NCBI GenBank assembly: GCA_964016885.1
Contig: CAXHJY010001498.1
Location: forward strand, 1 to 64,000
Source: Eledone cirrhosa
Lineage: Eukaryota
Direction: 5' to 3'
Length of the DNA: 64,000 bases
The notes beneath the pieces were generated by a model that had not been told where the DNA came from, searched no databases, and saw nothing but the letters and a program-made list of their open reading frames with translations. Positions 3,750-62,584 of this stretch are shown here, piece by piece. Position 1 is the first letter of the stretch. Each line of letters begins with the position of its first letter. The position numbers and the translations under genes were made by a program.

Positions 3750-3893
3750 TCCACATTTGAAAAGGGGGTTGTAGCCCTGAAATATGTTAAAATAAACTGG
3801 GCAAAGCATTACTTTGTATAGTTTTATTTGTCATCATTTGCCCTTTGTATTTTTCTAACGCATTGTACAAGCGTTTTGAAACTTATGAGTCTG
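3750..3893 (+). mobile_element. Degenerate hammerhead-like element abutting (TA)n
   Basis: TTGAAAA (3757-3763), gggg/ccct stem II, GAAA (3779-3782), tatGTT; stem I poorly paired. Confidence 0.4.
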
Positions 3894-3956
3894 TATATAT
3901 ATATATATATATATATATATATATATATATATATATATATATATATATATATATAT

Positions 3957-4242
3957 AAGATCAAAAGATGGTTAAAAGAGTTCCATCTTTTGCTCTTATA
4001 TTATTTATACTCCAGTCCTATAAACTGTTGAGTGCTACTTATCCGATATTTGCATTGCTTTATTGTGGTACAATAAAACTCACCTCCTACATGTATATAT
4101 ATATATATATATATATACAATGATATTAAATGATATTTAATATCATTGAATATTTACTCCAGTTATCTGTTGAGTCTCTAAATCAGTTATAAACATTTAT
4201 GTTTGTCGGACTTCCAACAAATTAAAGACAACTTCTACTTTA
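3957..4242 (+). mobile_element. Two TA-embedded 3' fragments related to hammerhead family B, each with a short 5' inversion
   Basis: 4118-4242 aligns by eye to 17790-17920 (tactcc...tgagt...atcagttataaa...ccaacaa.ttaaa..aacttctac); both pieces begin with short inverted repeats (aagatcaaaagatgg/ccatcttttgctctt; aatgatattaaat/atttaatatcatt). Confidence 0.6.
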
Positions 4243-4257
4243 TATATATATATATAT

Positions 4258-4432
4258 GTTTTAATATAGATGAGATTCTACAGGACTAGAACTGCTTCAT
4301 TCTGTAGAAATCATCAGAGATTCCTGATGATTTCTAAAGAATGAAACAGTTTTAGTCCTGTAGAATCTCATCTATATTAAAACTTTTATACTCTGCTATG
4401 TATTGAGTACCTTACTTACTGTGGTTACCTCC
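4258..4432 (+). mobile_element. Hammerhead family A element (Penelope-like pLTR/retrozyme-type) with inverted duplication
   Basis: Near-perfect inverted repeat 4258-4383 plus 3' extension tactctgctatgtattgagtaccttacttactgtggttacctccga; homologs at 29611, 38429, 51636, 60494. Confidence 0.85.
4319..4367 (+). ncRNA. Type I hammerhead ribozyme (GUA cleavage triplet)
   Basis: gattc-CTGATGA-tttctaaagaat-GAAA-cag-ttttagtc-ctg-TA-gaatc: stem I gattc/gaatc, stem III cag/ctg, canonical core; stem II short with a U-U closing mismatch. Confidence 0.8.
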
Positions 4433-4575
4433 GATGACGGTGGAGGTGGTGGTATTGTTGATGGTCGGAATGACGGTGGAGGTGGTGGTATTGTTGATGG
4501 TGGGCATGACGGTGGAGGTGGTGGTATTGTTGATGGTGGGCATGACGGTGGAGGTGGTGGTATTGTTGATGGAAA
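4433..4575. repeat. 36-bp minisatellite x4
   Basis: atgacggtggaggtggtggtattgttgatggtgggc repeated with 36-bp period. Confidence 0.95.
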
Positions 4576-6219
4576 GGGTGGTGGAATGGTAACCGTTTCA
4601 AAACACAAATTTAACGAGATACTAACGTCAACGTAAGGTCCGCCATTAAAATTATGTGTGTGTCAACGGAATGAAATATTGAACATTTTCAAGTTGGTGT
4701 GTGTGTGTGTGTGTGTGTCAGTGAGAGAGAGAGAGAGAGAGAGAGAGAGAGAGAGAGAGAGAGAGAGAGAGAGAGAGAGAGAGAGAGAGTGTGTGTGTGT
4801 GTGTGTGTGTGTGTGTGTGTGTGTGTGTGTGTGTGTGTGTGTGTGTGTGTGTGTGTGTGTGTGTGTGTGTGTGTGTGTGTGTCAGTGTCTGTGTGTGTGT
4901 GAGAGAGAGTGTGTGTGTCAGTGTGTGTGTGTGTGTGTGGATATGTATCTGAGAAAGTGTGTGTGCATGAATGTGGGTGTGTGATTGTACGAGTGTGTGT
5001 GTGAATAGGAATATTTATATATATATATATGCGTGTGCGTGTGTGTATATATATATATATATGTGTGTGCGTGTGTGTGTATATATATATGTGTGTGTCG
5101 AGGGAATGTAATATTAAATATTTTCAAAACTATGTGTGTGTGGTGAAGAAAAAGAGAAATTAAGATGAAAAGAAAACGAAAGAATAATGAATGTTTCTGT
5201 ATTAATAAATATTACTACACACACACACTATATATATATATATATATATACACACACACACGTTAACACACACACACATATATATACATACAATACATAC
5301 ACAAACAATATATATATATATATATATATGAATGTATGAATATATATATATACATGTGTATATACATCCATACATATATACAATACATACAGACACATTC
5401 ACTCTCATAGACTTACAAACACTTGTATATAGGCACACACATGCAAGGACACACACACACACACACACACACATACACAGACATACACAAAGAAACACAC
5501 AAACACACAAACACACAAACAAACACACTGACACACACACACACACACACACACATCCGACTAAGTTAAAAAAACATTAAAAATTAAATTTTCATTATAT
5601 TTCATTTGGAAAACAGTTAGGTACAAGGAAGAAAGATGTGGTGTCAACTTCGGTAGTGGGAGGAATAGGCAGGGAGGAAGGAGAATTTAAATTATCAACA
5701 TTAATTAGATTAACGACAATTTAATTACTATGAAGTATCCGGAGGTGTATTTAGGGGTGAGTTATTACCCACCGACACACACTCTCTCTCACCCGTTCGT
5801 AGCTGGTTGTCTTGTTTTTTTTTATATTTTACTAATATATTAAACAATCTGTTAGATTTAGGCCTGTTTCTGCGAGATTATAGAGAAAAGCACCTTGGTA
5901 TTTTCTTGTCGCCAAATTGCAGACAGATTAACAGGCGGGTAGGCTCTGGAAGGTAGGATGGTATGGAGGATTCACTATACTCCCCGAACAACCCCACCAA
6001 ACAAGCAGACACACACGGACAAGAGGGCTCTCTCTCTTTCTTTCTTTCTCTCTCTCTCTCTCACACACACACACACACACACACGCACACACACATCTCT
6101 GCTGTAGTTAAAGATTATGTAAAAAATACCTTCTAATGTAGCAGGATACCTGTGGTTTCATGGCAGTTAAACCCTGGAGTGGGATGTTTTTTTTTTAATT
6201 TATCTCAACTGAATAATTA

Positions 6220-6640
6220 GAGAGAGGGGGAGGGGGGGGGGCTGAGGCAGAGAGAGAAAAAGAGTGAATGAGTGAGAGAGAGAGTGAGAGAGAGAGAGAA
6301 CGAGAAAGAGAAGAGAGAAAGGGAAAGAGAGCGAGAGAAAGAGAGAAAGAGAGATAAAAAGAGAGAGATAAAGAGAGAGAAAGAGAGAGAGAGAGAAAAA
6401 GAGAGAGAAAAAAGAGAGAAAAAGAGAGAGGGATAAAGAGAGAGAGAAAGAGAGAGAGAAGAGAGAGAAAGGGAAAGAGAGCGAGAGAAAGAGAGAAAGA
6501 GAGAAAGAGAGAAAGAGAGAGACAAAGAGAGAGAGAGAGAAAGAGAGAGAGAGAGAAAGAGAGAGAAAGAAAGAGAGAGAAAGATATATAGAGAGAGAGA
6601 GCGAGAGAGAAAGAGAGAGAGAGAGAGCGAGTGAGAGAGA
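6220..6640. repeat. Degenerate GA-rich microsatellite
   Basis: Direct inspection. Confidence 0.95.
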
Positions 6641-60375: not shown

Positions 60376-60474
60376 CAAGTACAATTCCGTTATAACGAAT
60401 ACCATTATAACGAATTTTTCAGTATTACGAATTTTTTCATACCCCGTGAATGTCGTTATAACGGAATTTGACTA
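60376..60474. mobile_element. pogo/Tigger-like MITE (~100 bp)
   Basis: TIRs aattccgttataacga / tcgttataacggaatt; internal ttataacgaat repeats; TA flanks. Confidence 0.7.
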
Positions 60475-60493
60475 TATATATACTGTATATATA

Positions 60494-60686
60494 ATCCGTG
60501 AGTTCCGAGTTCAATCGCAGGTAACCACAATAAGTAAGGTAATCAATACATTAGTAGAGCGTATACAACAAATTTCATATAGAAATAGCCCTTACAAGAT
60601 TAGAACTGTTTCATTCGAAGGAAATCACCAGGAAAGCCATCTGACATTGTGATAAAGTGCACTTCTAATCCTGCAGAAGCTATTTG
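60494..60686 (-). mobile_element. Degenerate hammerhead family A element
   Basis: ggtaaccacaataagtaaggtaatcaatacatt...; minus core CTGGTGA...GAAAcag...GTA. Confidence 0.7.
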
Positions 60687-60732
60687 TTATATATATATAT
60701 ATATATATATATATATATATATATATATATAT

Positions 60733-61070
60733 ATTAGAAAGTGAGGTTTTTTTTTACAAAATGAAAAATAACCGAGGTGTCCTACACGAGTGAAAGTATA
60801 AAGAAAAAAAGATGAAATCGAAAATGCAACTAGAGTCTTATTATTTTTAAAATATATATATTTATTTGGTTCCTTTACCGGTTTCGCAGTTCTTCTGCTT
60901 TTCAAAAGTAGAGTTGAGATGGAGGGTCTGTGAGAAAAACTACAGACCCTCCATCTGAACTTTACTTTTGAAAAGCAGAACTGCGAAACCGGTAAAGGAA
61001 CCAAATAAATATATATATATTTTTTTAAATAAGACTCCAGTTGCATTTTCGATTTCATCTTTTTTCCTTA
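60733..61070. mobile_element. Hammerhead family D element with inverted arms
   Basis: 60805-60931 is approximately the reverse complement of 60942-61070; homolog 25605-25715. Confidence 0.85.
60965..60997 (+). ncRNA. Minimal hammerhead with U3-A8 core variant (mirror copy on minus at 60873-60908)
   Basis: ctt-TTGAAAA-gcag.aa.ctgc-GAAA-ccgg-TA-aag; the minus copy has a 5-nt loop II. Confidence 0.7.
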
Positions 61071-61255
61071 TATATATGTTATATATGACTTTTTCCCTTA
61101 TATATATATATATATATATATATATATATATATATATATATATATATATATATATATATGTGTGTGTGTGTGTGTGTGTGTGTGTGTTATATGTGACTGC
61201 CATGACTGAATTTTAACCATCTACATAGTCAAGGAATGTCAAGCATCATCTTATT

Positions 61256-61311
61256 TTATCTGATGAGGACGTACTGCTGAAGAAAGCTCAGTACCTCTGA
61301 AATATGTATAA
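61256..61311 (+). ncRNA. Hammerhead-like motif (family B-like)
   Basis: tta-t-CTGATGA (61260-61266)-gga.c.gtactg...cagtac.c.tct-GAAA (61299-61302)-tat-GTA-taa. Confidence 0.65.
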
Positions 61312-62584
61312 TAAAATATACTTGATCACACGAATGTCTATATTTGTTAATATTTTGAATTAATATTAATAACTCCGGAAAACCATTCTTGTCGCGTGCT
61401 TCTAATCTATTGTAAAACTTCATTCATTGATTTATTCATTGAACCTTGTTTAACCTTTAAATATATATGTTATATATATATATATATATATATATATATA
61501 TATATATATACACACAATCATACACACCCGTGTATATTTATTTTTATATATATATATATATATATATATATATATATATATATATATATATATGAGTGTG
61601 TGTGTGTGAGTGTTGTTTCGTATGTGTCTGTGTGCGCACGTGCTTATTTTATAATCGTTGATTCTACTTAAGTATACTAAACATGAACTTCATAAAGGAT
61701 TAATTATTGATTGAAGAGTTCCAACAATATATCTATTAATACAGATCTGGGGCGGGCGAGGGGAGCATTTGCAACCAGGTTGCCAGAATTATTAGGGCCT
61801 CGCGCCAAATGCTACCAGGCATCTAGTTAGGGTCCTTTCTTTAGGTTCTGAGTTGAAATCTCGCCGAGGCCAACTTTACCTTTTATCCTTCCCAGTTCAA
61901 TAAAATAAAATATCGATTAATAGCCTGGGGTTCAAGGGACCCCAGATTTTTAATAAGCTGCCAAAAAAATCTGAGAGCAGCAGCAACAAACTCCCTTTTG
62001 CATCAATGGCCAGCCAGGGAAAGCTGGCTATAGAAAGTGTAGCAACGGTGGTGGTGCCTTAGCATGGCCTCAGTCCCTCGAGTGACCTCTGGTCAAAAGC
62101 ATTCTAGCAGTGACTGAACCATGTTTTTTTTCTTTTTCACACAGAAAGCCAAACGGGCCACATGCTGCTTCCGGGCCGTAGTTTTCCCATGTCTGGTTTA
62201 GACCTACAATTTAATCGTTCGATGAATAATTATTAAAGAAATATACGCGAACTATCGTTCAATGACACTAAAGTAATTTGATTCAAAGTCATTATAAACG
62301 ATAATTTATGTGTTTTACTAAAACCACAATTCGAATAATTTACAACAGCTGTTCTGAACGACAGTTAATCAAGAGAAATTTAAATTAGCCAGCAACAGAA
62401 AAGTATTATTTTTAAATTGCATCGTTGATTATAGAGTAAAATGTTACGTGTGGATATTAGCTTTAGTTTTAAATGTCAAATAGTTAACGTTAACAAATTC
62501 TATACATATATATAGAGAGACAAAGCAGGCTTTGTTTATAAATCAGCGAACGAAGTTTGAATTAAGGTAGAATCATTTGCTTAC

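Follow-up and report, generated by a model that had tools for sequence, protein, structure and literature searches.

The stretch analysed here, positions 1 to 64,000 of contig CAXHJY010001498.1 of Eledone cirrhosa (64,000 nt, called the window below), belongs to a 3.0 Gb assembly with ~28 large contigs and holds a series of short islands (Table 1). A first-pass annotation, made from the sequence alone, had described such islands as lacking open reading frames (ORFs), had sorted them into families A to G and had linked them to Penelope-like elements (PLEs), as truncated copies or as non-autonomous hammerhead mini-elements or retrozymes. Self-BLAST and direct reading found the islands in place, mostly adjoining (TA)n and in many cases arranged as head-to-head inversions; no PLE protein match fell inside the window itself, and the families recur genome-wide with 361-1,887 first-look candidates each, figures that are lower bounds. 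We consider it likely that the islands are pseudo-long-terminal-repeat (pLTR) segments of autonomous PLEs inserted in (TA)n, and that most of the short ones are run-off cDNAs of the capped mRNA leader.

The island density first put forward, one per 3 kb, holds for the window, where TA tracts make up 14% of the sequence, and does not carry over to an unselected sample of 400 kb (40 stretches of 10 kb at round-number positions), in which TA tracts account for 3.4% and 54 insertions of these families were counted, one per ~7 kb. Each family has two alternative 3' ends, a short end and a longer end with a tail of ~40-110 nt.

The island families are continuous with PLE reading frames

Upstream extension in search of a PLE ORF for reverse transcriptase (RT) and GIY-YIG endonuclease, a check that the first-pass annotation had proposed, ran into a PLE ORF in natural long copies of every family from A to G, with partial ORF matches only in B, C, D and G. 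Of the first-pass proposals, the connection with PLEs, insertion targeted to TA and inversions of pLTR type were upheld. Non-autonomous mini-retroelement or retrozyme families found no support, A to G being contiguous with ORFs and the window containing no tandem hammerhead monomers. Because the long copies join PLE ORFs, with Hydra-clade diagnostics in A, we take the islands to be pLTRs of autonomous PLEs and not retrozymes. By sequence features, A, B, C and G would fall in the Hydra clade (for B, C and G on tblastn similarity to Hydra-type pieces only) and D and F would be Neptune-like, E being an unplaced PLE with a C-terminal GIY-YIG; at least five Hydra-type families touch the window.

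In full-length copies of A and E the pLTR island stands directly before the ATG, and the whole element reads start site, hammerhead motif, short end, tail, ATG, RT, GIY-YIG, 3' untranslated region (UTR) and next pLTR. Hydra-type ORF, UTR (2-4 kb and rich in microsatellites) and pLTR of family A are colinear in three loci (L044, L045 and L046), while L408 holds pLTR-ORF-UTR-pLTR-ORF with a period of 8,540 bp, and another tandem unit measures 5,925 bp. The A protein has RWRA at 38, DKT at 116, CxCX5C at 567 and YRDD; its GIY-YIG match is weak (0.0066) and the 587-aa RT part matched no Pfam family. A search with the continuation of the A tail gave 20 loci, and in 8 of them the frame is uninterrupted for at least 506 codons, as far as the collected stretch goes; some copies are young, with 99-100% identity across the part searched, and have long open frames. 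A reading of A as a 620-bp non-autonomous element, from 25 loci ending upstream in TA/TG, was rejected, since longer stretches show these repeats to be the 3' UTR.

Directly upstream of the E island, Pfam searches gave RVT_1 (1e-11) and GIY-YIG (above cut-off). Protein matches occur in 14 of 30 E loci, with textbook inverted structures among them, 11 of 20 loci have the tail motif in position, the ATG falling within that tail, and the closest named protein is an uncharacterised Octopus bimaculoides product with 63% identity. In F, RVT_1 (7e-7, just under cut-off) and GIY-YIG (3e-7) were found in 2 of the first 25 loci, and a CX4CxxC linker and a CCHH-type endonuclease were read by eye (L247/L250). 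One D locus in 30 (L327) has an F-related endonuclease ~1 kb upstream, with a UTR common to other copies. The C-terminus of a Hydra endonuclease lies ~0.8-0.9 kb upstream of C in two loci (E 1e-12 to 1e-13), and the ORF links of B (L251) and G (L234/L246) come from one locus each. Two candidate links were rejected as neighbours by chance: the ORF in L197 belongs to the family at 25451 and not to E, and the D copy in L049 is a separate insertion.

A YYGAGTRC-like word, possibly a protein-binding or promoter element, recurs upstream of the ATG in the tails of A, B, C, G and the 25451 family. Separately, one PLE rides in another: a half-hammerhead piece of family C sits in the TA repeats of the 3' UTR in 7 of 30 copies of a Hydra subfamily (L128, L140-L142, L147-L149).

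Inversions join a short end to a tail end

The short end falls at a TA-like word of the element in most families, and the tail of E runs ~28 nt past the start of the ORF, to a point at which the RNA offers no match to TA. The two ends are combined almost without exception in the inversions: among 159 distinct head-to-head pairs, 147 join a short-ended to a tail-bearing arm, ten are short with short and two tail with tail. When counted over unforced pairs only, meaning those whose centre match was not imposed by the search query, 94 of 104 are mixed and none is tail with tail (binomial p ~1e-18 against 0.5); several of the ten unmixed pairs look by eye like degraded tails. In L241 and L247 the ORF belongs to the short-ended arm and the shorter arm bears the tail, so that neither arm can have been copied from the other, which argues for two primings and not a single snap-back. 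Palindromes and overlaps occur at many junctions, and seven F junctions overlap by 10 nt. Strict pairing of this sort was not described in the literature we found, in which subscription journals are thinly covered.

Fixed 5' ends and an untemplated G

Counting only arms that had not been selected by their own family's query, 187 of 209 start no more than 100 nt upstream of the hammerhead core or after it. Their 5' ends gather in hotspots, which relative to the core lie at -10..0 in A (23/43 arms), +35..+56 in C (46/58), -53..-25 in D (19/23) and -49..-31 in F (10/16), and range overall from ~90 nt upstream of the core (B) to ~45 nt inside (C). The hotspots mark neither cleavage sites nor a fixed distance from the ribozyme. 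The earlier description as severely truncated copies came closer to the mark than the retrozyme proposal, except that the 5' ends are non-random and do not track the hammerhead. Two other origins were considered. Ribozyme cleavage was rejected for most copies, since the hotspots lie upstream of the cleavage site, and a 3' splice-site origin, considered for YCAG-like hotspots, gave no common upstream exon among the junctions listed.

In the collected loci, 26 of 39 arms with their start at one given A have G as the first foreign base; for arms that start elsewhere the figure is 30 of 164. Hand counts from listings were then made across the genome for exact patterns that combine a TA flank with the fixed A. 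Family C gave 143 G and 125 non-G (of the first 100 non-G listed, 59 T, which is the element's own base, 24 A and 17 C), with the extra G present in both sequence variants; A gave 65 G in 98 (19 C, its own base, 13 A and 1 T); B gave 22 in 39 (10 A, 5 C, its own base, and 2 T); and the first 100 of 136 matches of D gave 34 G, 42 C (its own base), 14 A and 10 T. The background of G is 33 in 328 (~10%), and the element's own base at this position is C or T in all four families. Taken with the hotspots, the extra G suggests that the 5' ends are transcript starts. Cap-like 5' ends of PLEs are likewise absent from the literature found, with the same thin coverage of subscription journals.

Predicted hammerhead motifs

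Candidate ribozymes were sought with a type I hammerhead descriptor that allowed a core with C3-G8, U3-A8 or U4C and G(A/C)AA, a stem II and a stem I of at least 3 bp each, and a palindromic or hairpin helix III. It matched 13 times in nine islands of the window, against a mean of 0.14-0.21 and a maximum of 2 in two sets of 100 block dinucleotide shuffles. The unselected 400 kb is the fairer test because the descriptor was written after the window had been read; there it matched 41 times, against 0-4 in 20 shuffles, and across all families 37 of the 41 have (TA)4 within 175 nt downstream, as do 20% of random positions. This amounts to ~1 motif per 10 kb genome-wide, or, scaled up roughly from a small and clumped sample, ~3 x 10^5 motifs and ~4 x 10^5 insertions of the window's families. 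In the collected loci (1.11 Mb, enriched for A to G by design) there are 332 distinct matches in 42 clusters, 19 of them with more than one member. When positions 3 and 8 were unconstrained, C-G (31) or U-A (2) stood there in 33 of 38 distinct motifs, and when helix III was unconstrained, it was palindromic or a hairpin in 24 of 27. A two-sided stem I change in family A lends modest support to the hammerhead fold.

A motif with a CUGANGA core, or its 3' half, had been ascribed to each family, and in D and F this core fails: the core is complete there with a U3-A8 swap (UUGAAAA). In the F cluster GCAA replaces GAAA in all 37 matches (A13C, both forms being permitted by the descriptor). Full motifs of G have a long stem II and U4C in 7 of 11 matches, and in C a full U3-A8 hammerhead is present in long copies, most short copies being cut inside stem II. 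The pair G10.1-C11.1 is often replaced by A-U, U.U or G-U. Among the islands first listed, the complete motif is missing at 4118, 25605, 27345 and 52038, and the islands at 3750, 51636 and 60494 fail the descriptor. Nor did Rfam, suggested as a check, identify any hammerhead in 20 island stretches: the best score was 15.8 bits against a cut-off of 34 for Hammerhead_1 (RF00163), and none was above E 9; on the whole window the search was swamped by microsatellite and microRNA (miRNA) matches. Activity of the family hammerheads is predicted for dimers or with assistance from protein, and A13C (F), U4C (G) and U.U (A) may leave little activity or none.

Three further observations concern ribozymes of this kind. 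In the window at 51510-51606 (minus strand), the G core can pair with its own stem II loop segment, an alternative fold that would switch the ribozyme off. Another abundant family (L031-L040), absent from the window, is TA-flanked and inverted and has a canonical hammerhead above the Rfam cut-off. In the unselected sample, three motifs (L345:6637, 7165 and 7693) form a head-to-tail tandem of 528 bp, which could be retrozyme-like or a short PLE tandem.

Features of the window

Table 1. Islands and related features of the window.
Feature	Position	Strand	Description
Family A inversion	4258..4435	+	Short-ended arm 4258-4317 minus, head-to-head with tail-bearing arm 4318-4435
Hammerhead of this inversion	core 4324		U.U at 10.1/11.1; pLTR of Hydra-clade PLE (putative)
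Family A solo arm with tail	29611..29760	-	Core 29742; reaches ~20 nt upstream of start hotspot
Family A subfamily inversion	38429..38617	.	Short arm minus, core 38487; tail arm plus
Degenerate A-like copy	51636..51770	-	Core altered; descriptor failed
Diverged A-like copy with tail	60494..60640	-	Core variant; descriptor failed
Family B inversion	17608..17918	.	Short arm minus, full motif, core 17706, palindromic helix III; tail arm also present
Family B subfamily inversion	49935..50256	.	Tail arm minus, core 50122; short arm also present
B-type tail	4118..4240	+	Tiny fold-back; hammerhead core gone
B-related family end	3958..4093	+	Begins downstream of motif present in other copies; new to the first-pass list
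B-like family copy	61240..61460	+	Full motif, core 61260, 8-bp stem I
Family C inversion	38265..38418	.	Tail arm minus, short arm plus; both begin inside stem II, 3' half hammerhead only
Family C inversion	49290..49437	.	Short arm minus, tail arm plus
Family C solo copy with tail	30605..30745	+	
Family C tail remnant	27345..27437	+	Without motif
C-like fragment, related family	52038..52091	+	Diverged 3' half of motif
Family D inversion	60735..61060	.	Full U3-A8-core motifs, cores 60905 minus and 60968 plus; end of Neptune-like PLE (putative)
Family D tail-bearing piece	25602..25726	+	Begins downstream of motif
Family E inversion	43127..43528	.	Two minimal motifs, cores 43275 minus and 43392 plus; bulged base after A9, G10.1-C11.1
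Family F inversion	49460..49911	.	U3-A8 core, GCAA for GAAA; cores 49590 minus and 49725 plus; end of Neptune-like PLE (putative)
Family G copy with tail	51386..51630	-	U4C, long stem II, core 51598; degenerate second arm 51791-51880
End of further Hydra-clade PLE family	25451..25530	-	New to the first-pass list
Island with U3-A8-type core, poor stem I	3750..3890	+	One 77% relative among collected loci
tRNA-containing element	10591-11008		New to the first-pass list

The E inversion is the centre of an apparent 1.5-kb palindrome (42570-44107) that consists mostly of expanded TA-type repeats.

The tRNA-containing element has a unit of ~270 bp without ORF, a second copy in the window near 62606-62717 and 2,016 candidates in the genome. 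It includes a tRNA-Ser(GGA)-like gene (ARAGORN, 10693-10766 minus; Rfam tRNA, 38.5 bits) and no match to the hammerhead descriptor, and it shares with the PLE islands the (TA)n insertion, short and long ends of PLE type and inversions, besides forming partial tandems of more than one unit. No consistent ORF link appeared in 25 loci (L410-L434), and it has the appearance of a genuinely non-autonomous element that carries a tRNA gene and is mobilised by PLE enzymes, of a kind for which we found no description in the literature. A separate abundant short interspersed repeat (2309-2488, 7949-8098, 16196-16644, 38145-38215, 47220-48320 and 62845-63396) with many copies in the window resembles an octopus short interspersed nuclear element (SINE).

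Discussion

From the layout of A and E, the ORF linkage of A to G, the arm pairing, the 5' hotspots and the excess of G, all of which are observed, we infer a promoter, a cap, a dimer and an order of events as follows. A promoter inside the pLTR would give a capped RNA, and the element's protein, probably a dimer, would cut both strands of a TA tract. Two sites of the RNA close to the beginning of the ORF would then serve RT for internal initiation, one for each DNA end, the short end being placed at a TA-like word in most families and the tail end at a site without TA match in the RNA. On the 5' pLTR it would reach the cap after ~50-300 nt and add a base opposite the cap; the islands would be short because RT primed on the 5' pLTR of a capped mRNA comes to the end of its template within that distance. 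On the 3' pLTR of a read-through RNA, the same process would give long, ORF-bearing copies. Two cDNAs joined at their 3' ends would form the head-to-head inversion, and the short copies are probably dead ends. The start so placed is the first base of stem I in A and lies inside stem II in C, so that the leader RNA of C would carry half a ribozyme.

Parts of this scheme have precedents. For one Poseidon element (Frangieh et al., PMC11167929), initiation by RT was shown to be internal to the RNA, at two points ~111-118 nt into the ORF that bound the tail; both DNA strands are cut, a dimer is predicted and hammerhead cleavage is unnecessary in vitro. The transcript start has been placed in the upstream pLTR (Schostak et al., PMC2377424), and a tail is often found at one end (PMC8557442, PMC3846280). 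On balance, and with less assurance than for the islands themselves, we lean towards the general statement that in PLEs each end of a cut TA tract primes cDNA at one of two fixed sites inside the capped mRNA, and that RT as a rule leaves the RNA at its cap, so that solo pLTRs, 5' pLTRs and inversions would all be leader cDNAs.

Several results weigh against the reading of the islands as pLTR segments and leader cDNAs. The families B, D and G each rest on one ORF-linked locus. The +1 sites were chosen after inspection of the data and tested genome-wide only afterwards, in A, B, C and D and with the TA flank searched in one phase; of 203 scored short arms (A, B, C and F), only 39 start exactly at +1. 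A second A-start in C, five bases downstream, is preceded by G in 22 of 69 cases (21 T, 20 C, its own base, and 6 A), so the extra G is not unique to one site; this could be a secondary start or cap-independent base addition, and another control start had only four matches (two G and two C). Where arms are inverted, the other arm may have supplied the template for the G, and subfamily divergence can shorten BLAST 5' ends, as in the extra clusters of B. As for the ribozymes, covariation in family A is limited to one stem I pair (both sides changed in 6 of 13 rows), the z-scores of folding, from +0.35 to -2.0, do not stand out and the predicted fold of the G motif has its core sequestered.

Some of these points would also be expected of ordinary abortive 5' truncation, in which RT on the 3' pLTR stalls at RNA structure near the hammerhead and adds an untemplated base at any stop. 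Most arms start within ~10 nt of the +1 A and not exactly there, C ends inside stem II, G is raised at the second C start too, and PLE fragments are usually put down to strong 5' truncation (PMC8557442; PMC4209133). We nevertheless regard it as unlikely, as the hotspots range from -90 to +45 relative to the core, lying upstream of the ribozyme fold in B, D and F, and in four unrelated families alike it is a single A that shows the greatest excess of G. More doubtful still are self-propagating mini-elements or retrozymes with master copies of their own that begin with G and are mobilised in trans by PLE proteins. Non-autonomous PLE derivatives do exist (PMC8557442, section 10; bioRxiv 10.64898/2026.07.22.740005), short copies far outnumber long ones, as the 187 of 209 arms starting near or after the core illustrate, and the window has one true ORF-less tandem element, that with the tRNA gene. 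Against this, each of the seven families is contiguous with an ORF, the window has no tandem monomers with hammerheads of A to G, the G precedes both sequence variants of C, and the short copies stop before the start of the ORF, when the one PLE protein tested in vitro needs the first 172 nt of its ORF in the template (PMC11167929).

Self-priming on a single template, possibly an antisense RNA, has been proposed for rotifer PLEs (PMC3846280) and would account for the palindromes and overlaps at many junctions, such as the 10-nt overlaps in F. We think it very improbable for these inversions: the arms differ at both ends, those of L241 and L247 each hold sequence missing from the other, and the cap-like G points to a sense template. 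The inverted structure and the TA flanks are also what miniature inverted-repeat transposable elements (MITEs) or similar DNA transposons with terminal inverted repeats at TA would show; with asymmetric arms, common solo arms and parents that encode RT and GIY-YIG and not a transposase, this explanation has next to no probability left and is refuted by the RT linkage.

The main value of a model in which pLTR segments arise as leader cDNAs is a testable account of how pLTRs and inversions form, and it would help to explain the terminal repeats and mirror-image insertions of PLEs. If true, the genome holds a record of leader cDNAs in hundreds of thousands of insertions from dozens of families, which would map the transcription start and priming sites of each family without RNA data and expose a large natural set of core variants (U3-A8, U3-A8 with A13C, U4C, and U.U at 10.1/11.1). 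The short/tail pairing and the cap-like G are two sharp predictions for an in vitro PLE assay and for cap analysis of gene expression (CAGE). Because family A has young copies with long open frames, a TA-targeting Hydra enzyme is within reach. On a practical level, ~4 x 10^5 short insertions, a figure scaled up from the 54 counted in 400 kb, could pass in annotations as SINEs, MITEs, unknown repeats or miRNA-like hairpins although they would be PLE pieces.

Comparison with known systems

An untemplated G at the 5' end of full-length L1 and SINE insertions is the mark of a copied cap, and L1 twin priming yields inversions by priming at both DNA ends. The islands resemble these in the untemplated G at the putative transcript start and in inversions that would come from two-end priming. 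They differ from twin priming in that the two arms begin close together in one 3' region, so that the 3' end is present twice, and in that a full-length product would comprise the leader only.

Non-LTR retrozymes (bioRxiv 10.64898/2026.07.22.740005) are, like the islands, non-coding, PLE-related and equipped with a type I hammerhead; retrozymes form head-to-tail arrays with a hammerhead in each unit, whereas the islands are solo or head-to-head pieces of ORF-bearing elements. The minimal type I hammerheads of metazoan PLEs (Cervera and de la Pena 2014, PMC4209133) have the short or palindromic helix III and the U3-A8 variant seen here, and occur mostly as single, truncated motifs in the pLTR, with opposite-strand pairs 100-700 bp apart. 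The G10.1-C11.1 pair is often replaced in our motifs, and the ~2,000-9,000 motifs reported there, with another descriptor, compare with an extrapolated ~3 x 10^5. In Octopus vulgaris, the available text of a repeat annotation (PMC13282606) lists 31 recently active PLE families and makes no mention of hammerheads or ribozymes.

Family E shares DKG and an ATG inside the tail with Penelope/Poseidon (PMC11167929, PMC3846280), and tails of ~40-110 nt exceed the 30-40 nt reported for endonuclease-containing PLEs. For the Neptune-like families D and F the likeness to Neptune-type PLEs would lie in RT plus GIY-YIG and, in F, in the CX4CxxC linker and CCHH-type endonuclease read by eye; the U3-A8 cores of both families and A13C in F set them apart from that type.

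With the Hydra clade of PLEs that have a C-terminal endonuclease (Craig et al. 2021, PMC8557442), the Hydra-type families, judged by the protein of A, share RW(K/R), DKT, the CxCX5C linker and a CxxC + CxH endonuclease, as well as a hammerhead near the 3' end, (TA)n insertion, inverted truncated copies and a tail at one end. Members of that clade are reported as shorter than 3 kb, a typical and not a defining value, and the family A unit of 5.9-8.5 kb exceeds it because of its 2-4 kb, microsatellite-rich 3' UTR. The clade is already catalogued in octopus, as Hydra-1_Obim from Octopus bimaculoides with its (TA)n preference (PMC8557442), whose hammerhead and N-terminus differ from those of A when the listed sequences are compared by eye. 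The exact families may already be catalogued in Repbase, Dfam or the O. vulgaris library; the kind of element is known, and the islands appear to be new families of known PLE clades.

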